54,768 nt of DNA from Minisyncoccota bacterium. GTDB lineage: Bacteria; Patescibacteriota; Minisyncoccia; Phycocordibacterales; UBA6899. The stretch spans positions 7,284-62,051 of the forward strand of contig DALYED010000004.1 of NCBI GenBank assembly GCA_031972735.1. The letters run 5' to 3'. Below the pieces are notes generated by a model. It saw only the letters and a program-made list of their open reading frames with translations. It was not told where the DNA came from and did not search any database. A program made the translations under genes and the position numbers. Shown here piece after piece: positions 1 to 9,255 of the stretch. Numbering within the stretch: the stretch's first letter is position 1; each line of letters opens with the position of its first letter.

Positions 1-288
1 AGCAAAAAATCCGTGCGTGGTGAGATCGGTGTCACCAAATGATCCACCAATAGACTTCTCGGGCACAGCAACAATGACTTTCTTGATTCCTTGGTTTTTC
101 AGTTTATCAAGTGCAAGAAACATTAACGCTCTGGATTTCCCAGAAGCGGGAGGGGCTTTCAAGAGGAGGTATTGCGCCCCTCGTTTCTCGAATGCCTTAG
201 CCTGCATTTCACGCATACCTAGTGCGTTTAATTTCGTACTTTCGCCAGTTTGCTTGTAATCTGCAGTAGCGACTTGGATTGTTTTCAT
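1..288 (-). CDS. SF2 helicase / restriction (Res-like) ATPase, N-terminal fragment; the gene continues past the left window edge
   Basis: ATG at 288..286, 4 nt after the methyltransferase stop. Hand translation gives MKTIQVATADYKQTGESTKLNALGMREMQAKAFEKRGAQYLLLKAPPASGKSRALMFLALDKL..., with Walker A APPASGKS. The frame stays open to position 1. Confidence 0.6.
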   Translation of the reverse strand, partial: MKTIQVATADYKQTGESTKLNALGMREMQAKAFEKRGAQYLLLKAPPASGKSRALMFLALDKLKNQGIKKVIVAVPEKSIGGSFGDTDLTTHGFFA

Positions 289-292
289 ATAA

Positions 293-2962
293 TTATTTGT
301 TGGTTTCGTTACTGATCATTTCCTCATACAATTTGAACAAGTGAGCCAATCGGTCTTCGTCATTTTCAAAAGGTTTATTTCGGTATATTTGATCAATGGC
401 GAGGTCAAGATATTTGTGAGCGTCCCTCAATCCTTCGGGCATTTTATCAGGATCGTATAACTCTGCCATAGTTCTATCAGGGTATTTTTCACGTTCTCCA
501 AGGATATTATACACATGGCCAGTCAGTGCCTCTTTTTGTTCAACCGTAATTTCAGGAAAAGGAAAGGTGTTATAGCAAATTGTTCCCGAGTACCTAATAT
601 CAGTCTTTAATCTTCCTGCCACTGCCTTAACCCAAACCATGTGCATTTTTGATGTAAGAATACTAAATATATACAGCTCAGGATTATAAATAACTAAAAC
701 CCCATTACTAAATACTGTACCTTTATCTAAATATCCAACTGTCATATAATCCCTCCTTTCAGTACTTGTCATGGGAAGGATTATTGCATTAGAATTTTTG
801 AATTTTCTATAAAAAAATCGATGTGCCACTGTCGCTGCTTTTTTTGCATCTCGCCCTGCACTAAGTCTGAATGCCCTACATTTATCAATTCTGTCCTTAA
901 TTAAAGGAATTTCATTCGCTTCTTCGGCTAGTTCATCATCTATCCACAAACAAAATCTTTTTGTACCACTTAAAAAATCACTTCCACCCATAAATGGTTT
1001 TATAAATTTTTTTGAAAGAGGGTTATTTAGAATAAAATTATCTCTTTCTTCTTTTGAAAGAGTTAGGTGTCCACCATCAATTCCACTACTACCTAATATA
1101 ATTTCTCCTACTTCAGAAAGTGGTTTGTTTCTCGCACAAATATACAAATTTTTTGCTTCAACTAAGTATGGGGAAATATTAAAAACTTTATGTTTTATCT
1201 GGTCTGTATATATGTATTTAGGTCTCTCAGATAACTTTCTTAACCCTATGATCACGCAAGTAACCCCCGCATTTCCTTTTGCCGAATTCTGCCATTTAAA
1301 TGATTGATGTGCAAAACTAATTTCAATCTCATCACGCAGAATTAAAGGCCACAGAACAGCTACTTGTTCGCCTTGGGAAATTGAATTTGTAGAAACGAAG
1401 GCAGACTTATTATTTGTATTTTTAATATATTTTGCAGCAAGAAAAAACCAACAGGATATGTAATCAATATTGCTAATTTTTTCATTACCCTTAAATACTA
1501 TTTTTAAATCATCTCTTTGATCTTCATTTTGCTTTTTCGCTCCATAGTAAGGAGGATTCCCTATCACGTAAATTTCGTAAGGCTCATTTTTATAATTAAG
1601 CTTTGGGCATATTTCATTCCAATCTAGCCTTGTGGCATTTCCACAGATAATTTTTCCACTCTCCTTGAGGGGTAGAGTTGGTTTCATAATTCCAAATTCA
1701 TCATCAAACGAAAGATTCATTTGGTGTTGGGCAAGCCACAACGAAAGTCTTGCGATCTCATGCGCAAAATCATCAATTTCAATGCCAAAAAATGAGTTGA
1801 GGGAAATGCCTGATAGAGGCATGTGATTTTGTTGCCCCATGTCAGTCATTTTTTCAATTATCTTGATTTCGAGCTTACATAGTTCCTTGTATGAAATAAT
1901 TAAGAAATTTCCTGAGCCACAAGCAGGATCAAATATTTTTATCTTTACAATCCTCTCTCGCAGTTTGGTAAGTTTGTTTAAACTATCCTTTGAGTCTTCG
2001 AACTCCTCGTATAAGTCGTCGAGGAAAAGTGGCTCGATGACTTTCAAAATGTTGGGGACAGAGGTGTAGTGCATTCCAAGGTTTTCTCTTTGCCCAGGAT
2101 GAACGACTGCCTGAATCATTGATCCGAAAATGTCAGGATTGATCGCACTCCAGTCCAACTGTCCGCATTCAATAATGAGTTTTCTGGAGCTTGCCGTAAA
2201 AACAGGTAATTTAATCTTCTTTTCAAAAAGCCCACCGTTTACATATGGAAACTCGGTAAAGTGGTGTGCAAATAATGCCCTGTCCTTCGCCTCAGCATTA
2301 AGAACATCAAAAAGCGTATCGAAGTATGCACCAAGATCTGAACCACTCACTTGCGTTGATGAATCAAGTGAATTTGTAAATAAGGTCTTTGGGAATATAC
2401 CAGTGTCTTCAGCAAAGAAGCAGAAGAGTAGTCGAGATAGGAAAATATTGAGATCATGAAGTCCACTCTCACTATGATCAGGACTATCATTGATGATCTG
2501 ATCGTACAGCTTAGCCATTTTGCTCGCCGCACGGATATCAGCAGGATTCTCATTTACATGCTGAGCTTTCTCCATTCCTGCCCACGGCAAGAAGAAAGCA
2601 TAGTGCTTACCCAATTCGTTGATGTGAATATCAAGGGTTTCGCGCGTTTTTGTATCAACTGCAAGGAGAGTCTCAAAATCGGTAACAATAATAAACCGTG
2701 GGTTATACTTTGATGCCATCTTATCTTTTTGAAGATCATCAATAGTAACGTGCACATCTTCTCCCGATGGGACATGAAAAAGAAGTTTATTTTTCAGAAT
2801 TATCTGGTTATCCTTACCGGACAGTTTTGATGGGCTATTCCTAAGGAGGGTGATGGTGCTTTTAGGTATTTCGTATGCGGAAAGCAACTCAAAGACAAAC
2901 GTTTCCCTTGAAAGGTCTGTGCTCAATTTTTCTAGGTTTTCTTGAAGTGCAACTGAGTTCAT
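293..2962 (-). CDS. MmeI-family (type IIL/IIG-like) N6-adenine DNA methyltransferase with target-recognition domain
   Basis: 889-aa ORF. Motif I is IFDPACGSGNFLI and motif IV is GNPPYYG. Collinear MmeI-family blocks are RLLFCFFAEDTGIF, FPYVNGGLFE, LDWSAINPDIFGSM, NLGMHYTS, FFGIEIDDFAHEIARLSLWLAQHQMN and FVSTNSISQGEQV. Confidence 0.85.
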   Translation of the reverse strand: MNSVALQENLEKLSTDLSRETFVFELLSAYEIPKSTITLLRNSPSKLSGKDNQIILKNKLLFHVPSGEDVHVTIDDLQKDKMASKYNPRFIIVTDFETLLAVDTKTRETLDIHINELGKHYAFFLPWAGMEKAQHVNENPADIRAASKMAKLYDQIINDSPDHSESGLHDLNIFLSRLLFCFFAEDTGIFPKTLFTNSLDSSTQVSGSDLGAYFDTLFDVLNAEAKDRALFAHHFTEFPYVNGGLFEKKIKLPVFTASSRKLIIECGQLDWSAINPDIFGSMIQAVVHPGQRENLGMHYTSVPNILKVIEPLFLDDLYEEFEDSKDSLNKLTKLRERIVKIKIFDPACGSGNFLIISYKELCKLEIKIIEKMTDMGQQNHMPLSGISLNSFFGIEIDDFAHEIARLSLWLAQHQMNLSFDDEFGIMKPTLPLKESGKIICGNATRLDWNEICPKLNYKNEPYEIYVIGNPPYYGAKKQNEDQRDDLKIVFKGNEKISNIDYISCWFFLAAKYIKNTNNKSAFVSTNSISQGEQVAVLWPLILRDEIEISFAHQSFKWQNSAKGNAGVTCVIIGLRKLSERPKYIYTDQIKHKVFNISPYLVEAKNLYICARNKPLSEVGEIILGSSGIDGGHLTLSKEERDNFILNNPLSKKFIKPFMGGSDFLSGTKRFCLWIDDELAEEANEIPLIKDRIDKCRAFRLSAGRDAKKAATVAHRFFYRKFKNSNAIILPMTSTERRDYMTVGYLDKGTVFSNGVLVIYNPELYIFSILTSKMHMVWVKAVAGRLKTDIRYSGTICYNTFPFPEITVEQKEALTGHVYNILGEREKYPDRTMAELYDPDKMPEGLRDAHKYLDLAIDQIYRNKPFENDEDRLAHLFKLYEEMISNETNK

Positions 2963-2975
2963 GTTTATGTATAGG

Positions 2976-3188
2976 CTATTTTAAAAGCTCATTACTTGAA
3001 ACACCCAGCGCGCTCGCAAGTTTTGAAATAGTCGAAAGGGTCGGATTCGTCTTGCCGTTTTCAATATTGCTCACAAAACTTCGGCTAAAGCCGAGCGTTC
3101 TAACAATATCTCCTTGTGTTATGCCTTTCTCTGTTCTAATACGTTTTAAGTTTTTCCCCAATTTTGCAGACTCACTTTTCATGTCCAC
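2976..3188 (-). CDS. XRE-family helix-turn-helix regulator (controller/C-protein-like)
   Basis: 70-aa ORF with LKRIRTEKGITQGDIVRTLGFSRSFVSNIENGKTNPTLSTISKLASALGVS. It sits 13 nt upstream of the methyltransferase on the same strand. The ORF-track start is GTG at 3188; an ATG at 3183 is the more likely start. Confidence 0.8.
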   Translation of the reverse strand: MDMKSESAKLGKNLKRIRTEKGITQGDIVRTLGFSRSFVSNIENGKTNPTLSTISKLASALGVSSNELLK

Positions 3189-3191
3189 AGA

Positions 3192-3205
3192 TTATACCGC
3201 GGTAA
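3192..3205 (-). promoter_or_regulatory. -10 box (TATAAT, 3197..3192) overlapped by the perfect 10-bp palindrome TACCGCGGTA (3196..3205); candidate C-protein operator
   Basis: The reverse complement of 3184..3197 reads TATAAT-CTGTGGAC, followed by ATG at 3183, a gap of 8 nt. The palindrome was read directly. Confidence 0.45.
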
Positions 3206-3413
3206 TTATATTGTACACTAATATTATAATATAATGTAACAGTCCCGAAATTCATTATGGTAAGCGAAACGCTTTCTTGATTTTAAGTATGGCGGGGCGG
3301 AAAAAAATCGAGAGCCGGAGATGCCGTGGGGCGACGAGCGAAGCGAGCGGGGGTGCCTGAGTTATCCTTGCTCATTCCTCTCGAAAAAGGTTCGCGCGAA
3401 TGATATTATGACA

Positions 3414-3534
3414 CCACCTAAAGATACTTTGTCGGAGAATGGCGAAAAGCTCGCGGTCTGCGACGCAGACTGCTCGGCTGTGGAAATCCAATTCGCCTTT
3501 GTGTGCGCCATGAATTCATAAAGTTCCCCCCAAT
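3414..3534. repeat. Left copy of the 121-bp inverted repeat (IR-L)
   Basis: It is the reverse complement of 4960..5080, compared base by base at 120/121. The only mismatch is at 3527, paired with 4967. Confidence 0.95.
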
Positions 3535-3542
3535 TAACTTAT

Positions 3543-5144
3543 ATGCAAGGACTCAAACCAAAATATTTCCTCTACGCGCGCAAGAGTACGGAGGAAGACG
3601 ATCATCAGATCATGAGTATCGAAGCTCAACTCTTTGAGCTTCGTGAATATGCGCGCAGAGAAAATATCGAAATTCTCAAAGAATTTACCGAATCGAAAAG
3701 CGCAAAGAAGCCCGGACGTGAGTTGTTTAACGACATGATGGAGCAAATAGAGTACAGCAAGGTTCCGCTCGGTATCTTGGCATGGCATCCTGACCGCCTT
3801 GCTCGTAATTCGGTGGATGGAGGCAAGGTGGTCTATCTAGTAGATACCGAGCAAATTGTTGCTTTGCGCTTTCCGACATTTTGGTTTGAGCCAACTCCGC
3901 AAGGCAAATTCATGTTGCAGGTGGCGTTCGGACAGAGCAAGTACTATAGCGACAATCTTGTGGAGAATATCAATCGTGGAATCCGCCAGAAAGTTCGTCG
4001 TGGCGAGTGGCTAACAAAGGCTCCCTTTGGCTATCTCAATAACCCTAAAACGCGCAATATTGAGCCTCACGCAACTGAATCGCGCATTGTGGTGCAAGTG
4101 TTTAAGGAATACGCCAAAGGGACGCATACACTCGGCACAATTTCTGACTTTATGGCGGATCACGGAGTACTTACATCAAACGGAACGCCACCTGCCAAAG
4201 CTTCCGTCGCTCGCATGCTTTCAAATCGTGCATACCTCGGTTTGACGCATCATAAGGGCGAGTACTACGACGGAAGCTTTGCGCCAATTGTTTCTCCGAT
4301 ACTGTTTGAAGCAGTGCAGAAGATGCTCGCGAAGAAAGCGAAGCCTCGTGTGCAAAAAGTACCGAACCATTTCCCTTTTGCACAGTTCGCAAGGTGCGGT
4401 GAGTGCGGAAGCATGATCACGGCTCAATATTCCACCAATCGTTTTGGTACTGTCTATACTTATTATCGTTGTACCAAAAAGAAGGGTGTCTGTGGTCAGC
4501 CGCATACATCCGCAGCCGCACTCACCGCCCAGATACATGCACTGCTTCAAACAGTCTCGCTTCCTCTTTCAGAAATTGAGGTCATGGAGAGACAAATTGA
4601 TGTATGGGAAAAAGAGTCAATTTCCAAAAGAGGAAGTGTTGCTCAAAATCTTAAAACCAAGCTTGCAGAAACAAAGGAGAAGCTCGATAAGCTCGTTTCA
4701 ATTTATCTCGATGGGGATATTGAGCGTGAGATTTACATACAACGCAAAGACCTTCTCCTTCGCCAGAAAAGCAAGCTTGAGGAGAGTTTTAAAGATTTAG
4801 GGCAACAGAGAAAAAATTGGGTCGAACCCTTGCGGAGTTTTGTTTTATCTTTGAGAGAAGGCGTGGAATTGGAAAAGGGCGAAAATTATTTCGCATGGCG
4901 TGAGTTTTTCCAAAAGATCGGCTCGAACCCTACTCTCAAAGACAAATCTCTTTCAATCCATTGGGGAGAACTTTATGAATTCATGGCGCACACAAAGGCG
5001 AATTGGATTTCCACAGCCGAGCAGTCTGCGTCGCAGACCGCGAGCTTTTCGCCATTCTCCGACAAAGTATCTTTAGGTGGACCATGGGAGAATCGAACTC
5101 CCCACCTCTTCCATGCCATGGAAGCGCTCTACCAAATGAGCTAA
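3543..5144 (+). CDS. Large serine recombinase (resolvase/invertase N-domain + recombinase domain + zinc ribbon + coiled coil)
   Basis: 533-aa ORF with FLYARKSTEEDD (Ser nucleophile), HPDRLARN, the Zn ribbon CGECGSMITAQ...YYRCTKKKGVCG, and a coiled-coil KLAETKEKLDKLVSIYLDGDI. The last ~60 codons lie in IR-R and antisense to tRNA-Ala, so the true C-terminus is uncertain. Confidence 0.9.
   Translation: MQGLKPKYFLYARKSTEEDDHQIMSIEAQLFELREYARRENIEILKEFTESKSAKKPGRELFNDMMEQIEYSKVPLGILAWHPDRLARNSVDGGKVVYLVDTEQIVALRFPTFWFEPTPQGKFMLQVAFGQSKYYSDNLVENINRGIRQKVRRGEWLTKAPFGYLNNPKTRNIEPHATESRIVVQVFKEYAKGTHTLGTISDFMADHGVLTSNGTPPAKASVARMLSNRAYLGLTHHKGEYYDGSFAPIVSPILFEAVQKMLAKKAKPRVQKVPNHFPFAQFARCGECGSMITAQYSTNRFGTVYTYYRCTKKKGVCGQPHTSAAALTAQIHALLQTVSLPLSEIEVMERQIDVWEKESISKRGSVAQNLKTKLAETKEKLDKLVSIYLDGDIEREIYIQRKDLLLRQKSKLEESFKDLGQQRKNWVEPLRSFVLSLREGVELEKGENYFAWREFFQKIGSNPTLKDKSLSIHWGELYEFMAHTKANWISTAEQSASQTASFSPFSDKVSLGGPWENRTPHLFHAMEALYQMS
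4960..5080. repeat. Right copy of the 121-bp inverted repeat (IR-R); lies inside the 3' coding end of the recombinase ORF
   Basis: It is the reverse complement of 3414..3534 (120/121). Positions 5078..5080 are also the last 3 nt (C71, C72, A73) of tRNA-Ala(GGC). Confidence 0.95.
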
Positions 5145-5150
5145 TGGCCC
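5078..5150 (-). tRNA. tRNA-Ala (anticodon GGC)
   Basis: The reverse complement folds as a 73-nt cloverleaf: GGGCCAT TA GCTC ATTTGGTA GAGC G CTTCC ATGGCAT GGAAG AGGTG GGGAG TTCGATT CTCCC ATGGTCC A. The G3:U70 alanine identity pair is present and CCA is not fully encoded. Confidence 0.9.
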
Positions 5151-5159
5151 TCGGTGAGC

Positions 5160-5188
5160 ATTATACAAGACTTTCAGAATGAGTCACG
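5160..5188 (-). promoter_or_regulatory. Candidate promoter of tRNA-Ala(GGC): GTGACT - 16 nt - TATAAT
   Basis: The reverse complement reads ...TTCGTGACTCATTCTGAAAGTCTTGTATAATGCTCACCGA followed by the tRNA 5' end. The -10 box is at 5165..5160. Confidence 0.4.
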
Positions 5189-5248
5189 AATCTTGTAGAC
5201 AGGTCATTCATAGTACTTTTTTATGTATTTTTTCATATCTCAAGAAAA

Positions 5249-5277
5249 TTGACATATATTGAAATATCTGATATAAT
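5249..5277 (+). promoter_or_regulatory. Consensus sigma70-type promoter: TTGACA - 17 nt - TATAAT
   Basis: TTGACA at 5249..5254 and TATAAT at 5272..5277, about 49 nt upstream of ATG 5326. That ATG has a GAGGAG Shine-Dalgarno. Confidence 0.7.
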
Positions 5278-5325
5278 AGTATCAGTTCCTTTCAAGATTG
5301 TATTCTCCAATATGAGGAGTATAAA

Positions 5326-6231
5326 ATGCTTCAACGTATCACTGTATACCAAAAAAGTATCCAAGAGTGTGTTTTTCATCTTAAAACAATGAAACGCAAG
5401 GATTTCTGCCGCTGGCTCGAGACTGGGTACGGCTGTATTTTTTCTTTTGTTATGCTCCTTTTGCTTGTGATTCTTCTCAACTGGGCAACTCTTCCAAAGC
5501 GTCCTGATCCAGTTCAATTTGTGCAACTTGCTGAAATCGTTACAGCACAAACAACTTCCATCAGCTCAGTTTCGGAACACGTTGTAACAGCTCCGCGTAT
5601 CCTGCAAGTTACCTCAAAATCTGGTATTACTCCTTTGCAATATCAATACACGATCAAATGGGGTGACACACTTACTCGTATCATGAAGGAGACATGCAAT
5701 TCGATCAATGAATTGCAGAGCATAAATCACATCGAAAATCCGGACTTAATTTATGCTGATAGTCAACTGATTATCAGAAAAGTGAATTCCTGTTTGAGTG
5801 CGAACCTGTCGCCTTCCAAGTCGATTACGTACGCAGCGAATGCAGTCAAAGCACCAGTGCAATTGCCCAAGGCGTCTATTGATGAGCCAAGTCTCGAAAG
5901 CGCAGCAGGCATGATTCATCAATCGACTGTTACGATTTCGATTGAAGCGATCAGCACACTTGAGACTGAAGACGCTACGGAAAGCGGAGCACCAAGTACG
6001 GTCCACCTCATTGACTCTGCTGTAGACGAAGTAATCGCATGCAATACTGATGCAGATTCCCTACAGAGCAATACACCATTGGTGCATCTTGGTACAATTT
6101 CCCCAGAATCAGACCCCCAAATTGATCCAGCTGGCGATGAACTTACGGATCATACATCTCAATCACGCGAGCGAACGTCGCTTTGTGAAAGTGTGAGATA
6201 CCTTGAGCCTGATTTAAGTAAAATACCCTAA
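5326..6231 (+). CDS. Membrane-anchored LysM-domain protein
   Basis: 301 aa with an N-terminal TM segment (IFSFVMLLLLVILL), the LysM block YTIKWGDTLTRIMKETCNSINELQSINHIENPDLIYADSQLIIRK, and an acidic low-complexity C-terminus. GAGGAG lies 8 nt upstream. Confidence 0.75.
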   Translation: MLQRITVYQKSIQECVFHLKTMKRKDFCRWLETGYGCIFSFVMLLLLVILLNWATLPKRPDPVQFVQLAEIVTAQTTSISSVSEHVVTAPRILQVTSKSGITPLQYQYTIKWGDTLTRIMKETCNSINELQSINHIENPDLIYADSQLIIRKVNSCLSANLSPSKSITYAANAVKAPVQLPKASIDEPSLESAAGMIHQSTVTISIEAISTLETEDATESGAPSTVHLIDSAVDEVIACNTDADSLQSNTPLVHLGTISPESDPQIDPAGDELTDHTSQSRERTSLCESVRYLEPDLSKIP

Positions 6232-6242
6232 TACACCATTAG

Positions 6243-6275
6243 AACGCCCCACAATATTGTCGGGCGTTTCATTTT
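6243..6275 (+). terminator. Rho-independent terminator
   Basis: Stem AACGCCC (6243..6249) pairs with GGGCGTT (6262..6268), followed by TCATTTT. Confidence 0.65.
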
Positions 6276-6291
6276 ATCTACGCAAGAGAAT

Positions 6292-6320
6292 TTGACATAA
6301 TCCTGTTTAGTGACTAGAAT
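6292..6320 (+). promoter_or_regulatory. Promoter: TTGACA - 17 nt - TAGAAT
   Basis: TTGACA at 6292..6297 and TAGAAT at 6315..6320, upstream of the second LysM gene. Confidence 0.6.
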
Positions 6321-6413
6321 AATTTTTTGTTCTTCCATATCTTTCAATTTAATTTCTGATACACGCAGTCTCACAAGGGGTATCAAATTGCGGCAAATAC
6401 AAAGAATCAAGGT

Positions 6414-7466
6414 GTGGGTGCGGTGCTAGTCACCATGCTCATTCTCCTGATACTCGTCGGACTCATCTGGAATGACCGCCAAACAGGAGCACAAGAAAGC
6501 GACAAAAGTCAGCTTAGTGCTCCACTCAAGCAAGAAATGCGCGGAGTGGTAACCACACAAGATTCTACTAAAGTAGTAAAAAATCTCATTCCAGAAGTTT
6601 TCTATCGAGTTGTTGTTCGCGGAGACACGCTTACCAAGATCGCACGTGAGTCGTGCAACACAATCGGTGACATCGCCACAGAGAATCATATCTCTGACAT
6701 CAATGTTATCTACGTGCACCAAACACTCACGCTTAAAAAGGTAGAACCATGTTCTCCGGTATTGGCGAAGTTGAAAACTTCTCCGGAGAACGTTCTGCAG
6801 TCACAACGCGGAGCTTCTCGGGAAAAGTCTTTATCACCCGATTCCGCGATTTCTTCGTTGCAACATGCTGGCACACAGCGCACCAATCGACTTGTCACTG
6901 ATGATATCTCTCCTGTCGAGTCAGTGCGTAATTGTGCGACTGTTGCATGGCGGATCAAGGATAACCTTGAAAAGCTCCGTATCAATGCAAAATGCATCGA
7001 AGAGATGTATGGTGAAATCATTCGAGATGCCATTCGCGAGGTAGATACTCGTATTGCATTTTATGATGTCATTGCGATCATCATTATCGAGTCCAAAGGC
7101 AACCCACTTGCTACCAACAGCGAAACGGATTGCCATGGACTGATGCAGCTCCAATCGCCCACTGCCCGAGGTTTCGGTGTCGCACATGTGTATAACCCCA
7201 GAGAAAATATCTTTGGTGGTGTACGCGTACTTTCGAACTATATCTTCGAAAAGTTCGGAGGTAGTCGTGCGCACGGAATCGCAGGATACAACATGGGTCC
7301 GTACAGCAAGTATTTCAAAGGTCACAATGACCCCAATAAGTATTGGTATGTACGTGATGTCGAGCGCATTCGAGCGATACTCGAACCACTTCCGCCCGTC
7401 TCTGGTGAAGAGATACTGCTTGAGCCGTCGCAAGAAATTGCGTCAGAAAGAAAATTGAAAGACTAG
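6414..7466 (+). CDS. LysM-domain lytic transglycosylase (SLT/GH23 domain)
   Basis: 350 aa with an N-terminal TM segment, the LysM block YRVVVRGDTLTKIARESCNTIGDIATENHISDINVIYVHQTLTLKK, and SLT motifs IIIESKGNP, HGLMQLQ and AGYNMGP. The start is uncertain (GTG 6414 or ATG 6435). Confidence 0.8.
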   Translation: MGAVLVTMLILLILVGLIWNDRQTGAQESDKSQLSAPLKQEMRGVVTTQDSTKVVKNLIPEVFYRVVVRGDTLTKIARESCNTIGDIATENHISDINVIYVHQTLTLKKVEPCSPVLAKLKTSPENVLQSQRGASREKSLSPDSAISSLQHAGTQRTNRLVTDDISPVESVRNCATVAWRIKDNLEKLRINAKCIEEMYGEIIRDAIREVDTRIAFYDVIAIIIIESKGNPLATNSETDCHGLMQLQSPTARGFGVAHVYNPRENIFGGVRVLSNYIFEKFGGSRAHGIAGYNMGPYSKYFKGHNDPNKYWYVRDVERIRAILEPLPPVSGEEILLEPSQEIASERKLKD

Positions 7467-7487
7467 TTTTTCAATTGCTCCAGAAGC

Positions 7488-7518
7488 AAAAACGCCCCAC
7501 AAAAGTGAGGGCGTTTTT
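7488..7518. terminator. Bidirectional rho-independent terminator between convergent genes
   Basis: AAAAACGCCC (7488..7497) pairs with GGGCGTTTTT (7509..7518) across an 11-nt loop. There is an A-run on one side and a T-run on the other. Confidence 0.7.
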
Positions 7519-7533
7519 ATAATTTCTACAACT

Positions 7534-8004
7534 TCATGCGATATCACCTGCAAATACTTTCTCAAGTGTTGCAATATCAAATTTCTTCATCGCAAGAAAC
7601 GCTTGAGTTACTCTCCCAATCTTTTCCATATCTCCAGATTTCATCATCTCATCCATGCGAGTTGGAACAATTTGCCAAGATAGACCATATTTATCTTTGA
7701 CCCATCCACACTGCTCTGCATCTTTCACAAAGGAAAGCTTCTCCCAGTAATAATCGATTTCATCTTGGGTGTCACAGCGAATGACAAACGATATTGCTTC
7801 GTTAAATTTAAACATCGGACCTGCTGTCATGAGACTTAATTCTTGCTCAAATATCACAAGCGTTGCCATCTCCACATTACCCGATGGAGTATCAGCAAGT
7901 GATCCATTGCTACGTAACATCGCATCAGGGAAAACTGAGATATAGAAGTCAGTAATTTCTTTTAAATTCTTATCAAACCAAAGAAATGGAGTAATTTTTT
8001 TCAT
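7534..8004 (-). CDS. VOC-superfamily protein, PhnB/YjdN-like (3-demethylubiquinone-9 3-methyltransferase-domain family)
   Basis: 156 aa with ITPFLWFDKNLKEITDFYISVFPDA...CGWVKDKYGLSWQIVP, which is typical of this family. Confidence 0.75.
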   Translation of the reverse strand: MKKITPFLWFDKNLKEITDFYISVFPDAMLRSNGSLADTPSGNVEMATLVIFEQELSLMTAGPMFKFNEAISFVIRCDTQDEIDYYWEKLSFVKDAEQCGWVKDKYGLSWQIVPTRMDEMMKSGDMEKIGRVTQAFLAMKKFDIATLEKVFAGDIA

Positions 8005-8140
8005 ACCATCAGTATAGCAAATTTCCTTGATGGAAGAATTTGGAGATGTGAGGTCTAATGTCTTTCAGTTGACTATGGAGTGTCCTAGATATTGCGCTCT
8101 GAAAAATAAAATACCGCCTCTGAAGGCAGTATTTCATTTG

Positions 8141-8213
8141 TGGACCGTACAGGACTCGAACCTGCCACCCCCGCATTGCAAATGCGGTGCTCTACCAGAT
8201 GAGCTAACGGCCC
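8141..8213 (-). tRNA. tRNA-Ala (anticodon UGC)
   Basis: The reverse complement reads GGGCCGT TA GCTC ATCTGGTA GAGC A CCGCA TTTGCAA TGCGG GGGTG GCAGG TTCGAGT CCTGT ACGGTCC A, with G3:U70 present. Confidence 0.9.
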
Positions 8214-8286
8214 AAAGTGCTACTATCGTAACAGAAGAGATTATACATGAATACTATTTTTTTTCCACCTTTTTTACAATGTTAAA

Positions 8287-9255
8287 CTATTTCTTTTGCG
8301 TAAGCGCAAGTGAGAGGATGTGGTCTATGAAATCGCTAAATTCAACTTTTCCTGCTTTTAACGCTTTCGGAAGGAGTGAATTATCAGTTAATCCTGGAAG
8401 GGTATTTATTTCAAGCAGATAAATACCATCATCCGCAATAATAAAATCAGAGCGCGAATAGTGGCGTGCACCAATTGCATGATGTGCTTTGAGTGCTAGC
8501 TCACGAAGTTTCCCATGTACTTCAAGGGTAAATCTTCCCGGACATATTTCTTCGGTTTCTCCGCTATATTTCACATCTTGGTCAAAAAAATCATGTGCTG
8601 GTGGAGGCACAATTTCGATTGGATAAAGCACAAATGACTCGCCAGGAGTTGTGCCCTCAATTACACAGACAGTTGCTTCCTTTCCAGGAATGAAGTCTTC
8701 TACGAGCACATCGCCATGTTGACTTGCTTCAACCAGCGCACTGCGTAGTTCATCATATGTACGTACAACTTTTGTGGCGAAGGAGGAACCACCCGATACA
8801 GGTTTTACAATAACGGGCATGTGTCGGTTGCGAAACAAATCAAATGCTACTTCAAACATGTTCGCAGTTTCGCTAATTACCTCACCGTGTGGAACTTTGA
8901 GTCCAGCTTCAGTAAAACGATCCTTTGCAAGTTGTTTGTGCATACCTACGGCAGACGCCATAACTCCCGATCCAGTATAAGGTATCTGCATTGCCTCAAA
9001 ATGCTGTTGCACTTTTCCATCCTCACCAAACTTACCATGCATTGCATTCCATACGACATCAACATGATGGTTAATATTTGCAAGGTCGGTGCGAATGCCA
9101 TTCATATACCAATCACCTCGTGGCGTGACGAGGATATCAACGGGGGTATATTTTTCACGATTGAGATGCCGGAGCACACTCTCACCTGTTTTAAGCGAGA
9201 CAACATATTCAGAAGATGGACCTCCTCGAACTACTCCTACGCGAATGTGCGACAT
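8287..9255 (-). CDS. ddl: D-alanine--D-alanine ligase
   Basis: 322 aa with IRVGVVRGGPSSEYVVSLKTG, the ATP-grasp block IVKPVSGGSSFATKVV, and LEINTLPGLT at the C-terminus. Confidence 0.9.
   Translation of the reverse strand: MSHIRVGVVRGGPSSEYVVSLKTGESVLRHLNREKYTPVDILVTPRGDWYMNGIRTDLANINHHVDVVWNAMHGKFGEDGKVQQHFEAMQIPYTGSGVMASAVGMHKQLAKDRFTEAGLKVPHGEVISETANMFEVAFDLFRNRHMPVIVKPVSGGSSFATKVVRTYDELRSALVEASQHGDVLVEDFIPGKEATVCVIEGTTPGESFVLYPIEIVPPPAHDFFDQDVKYSGETEEICPGRFTLEVHGKLRELALKAHHAIGARHYSRSDFIIADDGIYLLEINTLPGLTDNSLLPKALKAGKVEFSDFIDHILSLALTQKK

Follow-up and report, generated by a model that had tools for sequence, protein, structure and literature searches.

A large serine recombinase gene bracketed by 121-nt inverted repeats at a tRNA-Ala gene of a Minisyncoccota bacterium: probably part of a small integrative island

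The stretch analysed here (the window) comprises 54,768 nucleotides of a Minisyncoccota bacterium (assembly GCA_031972735.1, contig DALYED010000004.1, positions 7,284 to 62,051 of the forward strand), and the system in question is a large serine recombinase (LSR) gene which lies between two long inverted repeats, referred to as arms, and runs into a convergent tRNA-Ala gene. The segment arm-recombinase-arm is referred to as the cassette, and all coordinates are those of the window. The features of the cassette and its two junctions, together with a comparator tRNA gene, are as follows:

3333..3413 (+): putative 'P-side' repeat, whose inverted mate is expected beyond the left end of the window
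3372..3413 (+): conserved 'P flank' ctcgaaaaaGGTTCGcGCgaaTGaTATTATgaca, outside the repeat, with an extended -10 promoter-like site (promoter scan, family alignment)
3414..3534 (+): left (5') arm of the inverted repeat, leader of the recombinase gene
3453..3473: GC-rich hairpin GCGGTCTGCGACGCAGACTGC in the left arm, with a mirror copy at 5021-5041
3543..5144 (+): LSR gene, an open reading frame (ORF) of 533 aa with Resolvase, Recombinase and Zn_ribbon_recom domains
4960..5080 (+): right (3') arm of the inverted repeat, forming recombinase codons 473-513; its tip rebuilds the tRNA 3' end
5076..5150 (-): tRNA-Ala(GGC), the presumed integration target (ARAGORN 5076-5150; Rfam 5078-5150, 60.7 bits)
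5160..5187 (-): promoter-like site of tRNA-Ala(GGC), from which transcription would converge on the recombinase gene
8101..8213 (-): unoccupied comparator site at the paralogous tRNA-Ala(TGC) (gene 8140-8213)

The original prediction, made from the letters of the window alone, had read 3414-3534 as the reverse complement of 4960-5080, and a repeat search returned the same pair (121 nt, 120/121 matching, 99% complementary, arms 1425 nt apart); a near-perfect match of this length excludes a chance origin, and no further copies of the arms were present in the 54.8-kb window. The smaller details given with that claim were also reproduced: the sole mismatch (3527 versus 4967, arm position 114) changes GGA to GGG, both encoding Gly, and is silent; the left arm ends 8 nt ahead of the recombinase ATG, while codons 473-513 are formed by the right arm; and the tail expected after inversion, ...GG-VIISFARTFFERNEQG with a stop at 3364-3362, is correct as read from the sequence. 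Each arm of the window contains a single hairpin without a T-run, and no canonical terminator was found within the arms by a terminator scan.

The resolvase catalytic domain (PF00239, E=5.4e-21) was located at residues 9-156 of the encoded protein, followed by PF07508 (Recombinase, DNA-binding domain 1, DBD1) at residues 179-264, PF13408 (zinc ribbon, DBD2) at residues 278-331 and approximately 100 further residues. In an alignment of 24 sequences the catalytic YxRKS motif was kept, with Y11, R13, K14, S15 and T16 invariant, and the zinc-ribbon CxxC...C..C cysteines were invariant as well. Because of this domain composition, the window protein is assigned to the large serine recombinases. Its best match among solved structures is the SPbeta integrase (E=2.6e-9, match spanning residues 13-428), and the closest annotated phage or plasmid LSRs are approximately 24% identical to it. 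More than 7,500 homologues were recovered at E<=1e-10, and those with a named source all belong to the Candidate Phyla Radiation (CPR)/Patescibacteria, mainly to the Parcubacteria/Paceibacterota group. No relatives were found in the IMG/VR viral contigs scanned, so a phage origin is unsupported. Exact-protein look-ups of the recombinase, and of the MmeI enzyme and 70-aa XRE protein encoded to its left, returned no matches.

The recombinase ORF has no stop codon ahead of the tRNA gene, and its final 21 codons are antisense to tRNA-Ala. Because the ORFs of its relatives also lack such a stop, most homologues (P0001-P0120) end as translations of tRNA antisense sequence, reading ...GPxxxRT...EALYQxS at tRNA-Ala genes and DPTGNRTR...PNR at tRNA-Leu or tRNA-Glu genes. 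Protein conservation falls off past WGELWDF, and from this it is features of the arm DNA or RNA, rather than the encoded tail, that seem to be conserved. Separately, any recombinase transcript terminating inside the arm would be a non-stop mRNA, both in the window (5081-5144) and in the homologues.

For a survey of the family, 80 genome and 80 metagenome loci (numbered with the prefix L) were retrieved, and the 113 loci that offered no less than 150 nt of upstream sequence were scored for repeats; a locus was counted when its leader and its 3' coding end formed an inverted repeat of 80 bp or more. The repeat, which the original prediction had suggested looking for in related genomes, was present in 92 of these 113 loci with a median length of 130.5 bp, and was perfect in 47; in approximately 21 of the 113 the arms are hybrid or diverged, or the left one is missing. 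The arms of some loci differ from each other by 1-18 substitutions. In 71 loci the tip of the 3' arm overlaps the 3' end of a convergent gene for a tRNA or for transfer-messenger RNA (tmRNA), the targets being Leu, Ala, Glu, Arg, Tyr, Phe, Lys and Ile tRNAs and tmRNA, and the sequence of the tip varies in step with the type of tRNA, reading CCACC at Ala, GCACC at Leu and TCACC at Glu genes. Copies with 93-96% identity occur in different CPR lineages with differing flanks. The architecture was found inside contigs of 200-500 kb (L007, L018 (516 kb) and L037). Contigs very commonly break at the left arm, and L059 (1429 bp) consists of the unique segment between the arms alone; the numerous 1.7-2.1-kb contigs among the homologues exist because assemblies break at the repeats. 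No circular or repeat-ended contigs were found among the retrieved loci.

One or two GC-rich hairpins lie at a fixed distance from the tip in the arms of relatives, with a sequence that varies by lineage and, in many, with A and T runs on either side; their constant position combined with lineage-specific sequence points to compensatory change. The median z-score of the arm hairpins was about -1.9, with 48% below -2. Hybrid arms were observed in L123 (3210-3262/4670-4722) and L125 (4899-4951/6359-6411), where identity is confined to the inner 53 bp and the tRNA-side arm belongs, over its outer ~85 bp, to another arm variant, which suggests that a resident element was replaced by homologous recombination. 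L073 contains a second, partial recombinase homologue (FWFDPTPQGKFML..., 1015-2205), approximately 3 kb left of the arm and upstream of the main copy.

At the right-hand junction of the window, the arm tip GGTGG (5076-5080) encodes C71, C72, A73, C74 and C75 of tRNA-Ala(GGC), so that the acceptor stem of this tRNA is completed by repeat DNA. Rfam models searched over 2500-9000 matched just the two tRNAs. The comparator tRNA-Ala(TGC) ends in ...GGTCCAC, followed directly by AAAT and then by its own hairpin and T-run terminator, the CCA being incompletely encoded. As a separate observation, this second tRNA-Ala gene is a potential target that is still free, and many relatives use Ala-TGC.

At the left-hand junction, approximately 40 nt just outside the left arm (ctcgaaaaaaGGTTCGnGCaaatgaTATAATnaca) are kept in every lineage. 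The flank of the window contains TCGAAA (-35, 3381-3386), 17 nt and TATTAT (-10, 3404-3409) with TG upstream, an arrangement that looks like a promoter with its predicted start close to the arm tip. When the flanks of 63 distinct loci were profiled, GTTCG was present at -24 to -20, GC at -18/-17 and TAnnAT at -10 to -5; in the same loci the tip-proximal ~26 nt of the arm follow a conserved pattern with CACC at +2 to +5, AC at +13/14 and AATT at +23 to +26. Conserved stretches of approximately 25-30 bp lie on each side of the core. In the tRNAs, the T-loop box GTTCRA sits 18 nt from the arm tip, compared with 24 nt for the GTTCG of the flank.

In 22 loci the P flank, along with 32-377 bp beyond it, recurs in inverted orientation 2-5 kb further to the left, mostly as a perfect copy, and the complete elements bounded by these inverted P sides measure 3.4-7.3 kb (n=22). 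Identity with the internal copy ends, at the far junction, after NCA(C), and this 3-4-nt core is all that the three junctions have in common. Past the far junction, a hairpin and T-run in the direction of the tRNA were found in at least 9 of the 22 elements, and in others, such as L073, L115 and L126, the next tRNA of an array follows. The unoccupied tRNA-Ala(TGC) of the window, with its terminator directly attached, is the native counterpart of the terminator beyond the far junction. The window itself holds a single copy of the P flank (at 3389, searched with up to three mismatches), so the inverted mate lies off the window. A Logan contig of the same strain stops at window position 3362, which fits a k=31 branch point at about 3333 and suggests that the P-side repeat of the window starts near 3333. 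The 68-aa XRE and LysM neighbours, searched in Logan, matched just short contigs breaking inside the tRNAs or at 3362. The corresponding contigs in the Logan assemblies of SRR4000971 and SRR4000976 (L161, L162 and L164, covering window 5115/5122-8166 and 922-3362 at 99.96-100% identity) break within both tRNA-Ala genes and at 3362.

Taken together, the repeats are rather probably the terminal arms of a recombinase cassette which forms part of a small LSR integrative island, placed between tRNA-Ala(GGC) and the sequence originally downstream of it. In such an island the tRNA with the right arm would represent an attL-type site (B-O-P'), the far-end flank with the displaced terminator an attR-type site (P-O-B'), and the flank with the left arm an intact, inverted attP-like copy (P-O-P') that the island retains internally, the left arm supplying the inner (P'-type) half and the P flank the outer half-site. 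The excised circle would carry the attP-bearing 200-500 bp twice as an inverted repeat, parting the recombinase from the cargo segment, and integration would split one attP copy and leave the other intact; the 121-bp repeat would accordingly be the P' side of a longer stretch present in duplicate. The internal copy would double as promoter and leader of the recombinase, and since it is the expected binding site of the recombinase itself, the gene is probably subject to negative autoregulation. Were the internal copy to act as a second attP, cassettes with tRNA genes on both sides would result; L009, L057 and L138 show precise tRNA junctions on both arms, as is expected if the internal site recombines with a second tRNA. 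The near-identity of the arms would be kept by arm-arm recombination or gene conversion, which would occasionally invert the cassette. According to a structural study of serine integrases (PMC11722253), the distal DBD2 motif of an attB half-site is 4-5 bp nearer to the centre than that of an attP half-site. The GTTCRA box of the T-loop and the GTTCG box of the flank differ by 6 bp in their distance from the core, a shift which resembles this spacing difference and may explain why any tRNA or tmRNA can serve as target; as 6 bp is similar but not identical to 4-5 bp, the half-site assignment is held as provisional.

Several points weigh against this interpretation. The register shift is 6 bp and not 4-5 bp, and the dyad symmetry of the internal site is weak (7/14 positions) and at most suggestive. 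Two equivalent attP copies should give balanced orientations, but about 95% of loci have the cassette one way round. The half-sites of LSRs need just ~25 bp, and the island model leaves the identity of arms of 120-140 bp (200-500 bp in the circle) unaccounted for; the approximately 21 of 113 loci without matching arms mean, moreover, that arm identity is not obligatory. No orthologous empty tRNA-Ala(GGC) site or excised circle was found among the related loci and Logan contigs. In L144 and L165, arms are joined directly to the downstream (B') side, which canonical attP x attB recombination does not predict under this assignment of sites. Finally, the far end of the element of the window lies off the window, and the island model is transferred to it from relatives.

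A possible though tentative variant is that the family forms a modular kit for shuffling half-sites, with an autonomous cassette and separate cargo modules (XRE, defence genes) that have inverted promoter-bearing repeats of their own. The recombinase would then join any two of four types of half-site, provided by the arm, the promoter flank, the T-arm of the tRNA and the sequence downstream of the tRNA, using a 2-bp core at tRNA positions 71-73 and the universal T-loop GTTCRA as the distal motif. Fusion of two circles with palindromic junctions would create the double inverted attP, and exchange between convergent tRNAs, tandem composites and flipping would follow, possibly without a separate directionality factor, with the C-terminal tail of the recombinase varying with the state of the element. 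No tRNA directly followed by an inverted P flank, as in a cargo-only insertion, was found, all loci searched having been selected for carrying the recombinase.

The original prediction had also offered a 1.67-kb unit resembling an insertion sequence (IS). In this explanation, the arm-recombinase-arm cassette would be mobile by itself, passing through a circle with a palindromic arm-arm junction and targeting tRNA-like 3' ends, and the flank, XRE gene and cargo would be a second module with its own inverted repeats, in or beside which the cassette had inserted. Part of this has been borne out, as the cassette can act as a unit of its own in two loci. In L144 (3580-5389) the cassette lies alone between two tandem tRNA-Arg genes, with an arm tip that, owing to the complementarity of the acceptor strands, overlaps one tRNA at its 3' end and the following one at its 5' end. 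In the TARA scaffold L165 (5059-15363) the order is tRNA-Glu, arm-LSR2-arm, cargo bounded by P sides, arm-LSR1-arm and terminator; two directly oriented cassettes bracket one cargo, the outer arms are joined to the tRNA and to the terminator, and LSR2 is apparently truncated (398 aa). The cargo between the inverted P sides of this scaffold comprises XRE, AAA_15 ATPase, N6_N4 methyltransferase and ResIII helicase genes. Moreover, the homology of L014 with L005, L007 and L018 (93-96%-identical copies) ends exactly at the arm tips, P-like flanks lie on both sides of the cassette in L095, L118, L148 and L167, and three copies (L004, L019 and L057) reside in one metagenome-assembled genome (CALRHG01). 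However, these three are divergent rather than identical, at 79%, 78% and 67% identity to the window protein, and simple insertions, with a tRNA on one side and native downstream sequence on the other, amount to about 2 of ~110. The cassette is instead mostly joined to flank, XRE gene and cargo: the conserved flank, with an inverted mate of its own at the far end, adjoins the 5' arm in the window and in ~85 other loci, and the 1.7-2.1-kb contigs that might be taken for free units are assembly breaks at the repeats (L059, Logan contigs). An autonomous IS-like cassette is thus considered unlikely as the general explanation.

Another suggestion of the original prediction was a self-inverting switch. 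As a dedicated switch, the recombinase would flip its own gene, thereby changing its C-terminal tail and setting which outside promoter, that of the flank or that of the tRNA, reads the gene in sense or antisense. Inversion does occur, in three independent lineages. L014 has the tRNA flank and ~355 bp of promoter-side flank as in L007, L008 and L018, with the 1678-bp cassette inverted; in L121 the inverted P side adjoins the 3' arm, with the XRE gene beyond it; and in L166 the tRNA adjoins the 5' arm and the flank adjoins the 3' arm. The alternative tail xIIxFARTFFE, which is the translated inverted flank, ends 8/120 homologues (~7%) among the matches listed, its conservation following from that of the flank, and the promoter-like sites of flank and tRNA face the cassette from opposite sides. 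The extreme C-terminus of the SprA integrase reportedly affects directionality. What did not stand is a dedicated, regulatory role for the inversion, which we regard as improbable, given that the orientation bias is about 95:5 and that, beyond the change of the recombinase tail, no other gene or promoter is visibly switched. The recombinase gene is alone in the invertible segment, with the promoter-like sites beyond the ends of that segment, and only the last ~20 codons of the gene change; the identity of the arms leaves the mRNA leader the same both ways, so the recombinase is expressible in either orientation, and a tRNA-encoded tail that varies with the type of tRNA is unlikely to be functional. 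A pure switch, furthermore, needs neither a far-end mate nor displaced terminators nor tRNA specificity. For L121, a flip by re-integration through the other attP copy was rejected, as the XRE gene is still beside the same P-side copy, which fits in-situ arm-arm recombination. Beside the tRNA-Ala gene of L166, ARAGORN reports a tRNA with anticodon TTA ('tRNA-Stop', 8543-8617), possibly a suppressor tRNA or a miscall.

A function at the RNA level, in which the leader arm would pair with the 3' coding arm or with tRNA read-through and a duplex of ~120 bp would control the recombinase message, is very doubtful as the explanation of the repeats. Transcription is predicted to start right at the arm tip, arm hairpins are conserved by position and not by sequence, and tRNA transcription converges on the recombinase gene, all of which agree with it; but the precision of the tRNA junction, the far-end mate and the double-tRNA cassettes would go unexplained, and in about one fifth of loci the arms have diverged while the genes are intact. 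Such a function is compatible with the island as an added layer and is not an alternative to it. An inverted chimera arising from assembly or from multiple displacement amplification, the last of the original suggestions and one favoured by the frequent contig breaks at the arms and otherwise just as a general possibility, can practically be dismissed, as the architecture recurs in more than 90 independent assemblies from different assemblers and in contigs of up to 516 kb (L018), with 1-18 arm substitutions, a tip that covaries with the tRNA and conserved flanks.

The neighbouring genes to the left of the cassette, which would be the cargo of the island, are as follows:

2976..3188 (-): XRE-family helix-turn-helix (HTH) gene (Pfam HTH_3), heading the cargo operon and diverging from the adjacent cassette
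293..2962 (-): MmeI-family (type IIL) restriction-modification enzyme, cargo (Pfam MmeI_Mtase, MmeI_TRD, MmeI_N, MmeI_hel, MmeI_C)
1..288 (-): start of a cargo gene that encodes a Walker-A motif and weakly resembles DEAD helicases, running off the left end of the window

As the last of these leaves the window, the far end of the island lies outside it. Homologues of the XRE protein (~68 aa, encoded on the opposite strand) occupy the same place in ~45 loci, the window included, and the cargo beyond the XRE gene varies among relatives. The three-gene operon of window 1-3188 (XRE gene, complete MmeI enzyme and Walker-A gene, minus strand) resembles defence cargo. Between the XRE gene and the promoter flank, a GC-rich stretch (GGCGGGGCGGAAAAAAATCGAGAGCCGGAGATGCCGTGGGGCGACGAGCGAAGCGAGCGGGGGTGCC, 3290-3360) stands out in this 40% GC genome; it matched no Rfam family and could be an XRE operator or a portion of the P-side repeat. 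GC-rich stretches at the matching place in relatives produce spurious conserved ORFs.

What the original prediction overlooked is that the repeat is family-wide, that the unit extends left past 3414 and that the tRNA 3' end is rebuilt by the arm. The locus was compared with known systems in which a recombinase acts on a tRNA, on inverted repeats or on a discrete unit. The large serine integrases of phages and of integrative and conjugative elements (phiC31, Bxb1, A118/LI and SPbeta SprA) likewise combine Resolvase, Recombinase and zinc-ribbon domains, and the junctions here share a 3-4-nt core alone, as expected of a 2-bp crossover; here, however, the attP-like stretch is duplicated and inverted around the integrase gene and overlaps its coding end, and no recombination directionality factor was identified. 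The 3' ends of tRNA and tmRNA genes are targets typical of tyrosine rather than serine integrases. Islands of the tyrosine-integrase type likewise insert at the tRNA 3' end and rebuild it, place the integrase gene beside the tRNA and carry restriction-modification and other probable defence genes, but here a serine recombinase stands in place of the tyrosine integrase, the 3' part of the tRNA is not repeated as a long direct copy, and the long repeats are inverted and internal only.

The small invertase Hin has a C-terminal HTH, acts at 26-bp hix sites and switches an outward promoter for flagellin genes. Segments of this type likewise hold a serine recombinase gene between inverted repeats and occur in nature in both orientations; the present case differs in having a 533-aa LSR, arms of 121 bp, a promoter outside the segment, a strong bias in orientation and repeats that double as integration junctions. 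The locus of the window lacks what would define it as a Hin-type switch or as a multi-copy IS, while sharing behaviours of both. The circle proposed here would, like the yeast 2-micron plasmid (FLP/FRT in 599-bp inverted repeats) and pSM19035-type plasmids, consist of two unique segments separated by long perfect inverted repeats; in 2-micron too, the repeats hold the target of the recombinase of the element, which is encoded by one segment, and flip-flop isomers arise. FLP, in contrast, is a tyrosine recombinase on a replicating plasmid, whereas the present element has no conserved replication gene and is known in the integrated state alone. In Tn4451 (TnpX), Tn5397 (TndX) and IS607, an LSR-type enzyme moves a discrete unit via a circle, to which the rare cassette-only insertions (L144) correspond, but we know of no 120-bp perfect terminal inverted repeats, overlap of coding end and terminal repeat, or targeting of tRNA 3' ends in these elements. 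In Tn3/gamma-delta, binding of resolvase at res represses its own promoter. The promoter-like site of the present recombinase gene likewise sits within the expected binding site of the enzyme, which suggests autoregulation, though this is a likeness of logic alone. Full-text literature searches returned no description of the architecture; such absence is no proof of novelty, and the architecture, which well over a hundred assemblies of ultra-small CPR/Patescibacteria have in common, is apparently undescribed so far. What is unusual about it is the targeting of tRNA and tmRNA genes by a serine integrase, the inverted attP-like duplicate that overlaps promoter, leader and coding end, and the natural flipping and exchange.

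The genomes of CPR/Patescibacteria are tiny and are thought to be poor in mobile elements. In these organisms, restriction-modification genes and other probable defence genes apparently often travel with the present family, for which nearly any tRNA or tmRNA gene is a target. For specialists, the interest lies in the tRNA 3'-end targets, the core that covaries with the tRNA and the duplicated, inverted attP-like region, and the family offers natural examples of the flipping of an inverted-att cassette and of products resembling cassette exchange. It makes testable both the relation of half-site spacing to directionality and the autoregulation of an integrase via a retained attP. The repeats also systematically break short-read assemblies of CPR genomes beside tRNA genes. 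Lastly, compact integrases that recognise a universal tRNA feature could serve genome engineering.

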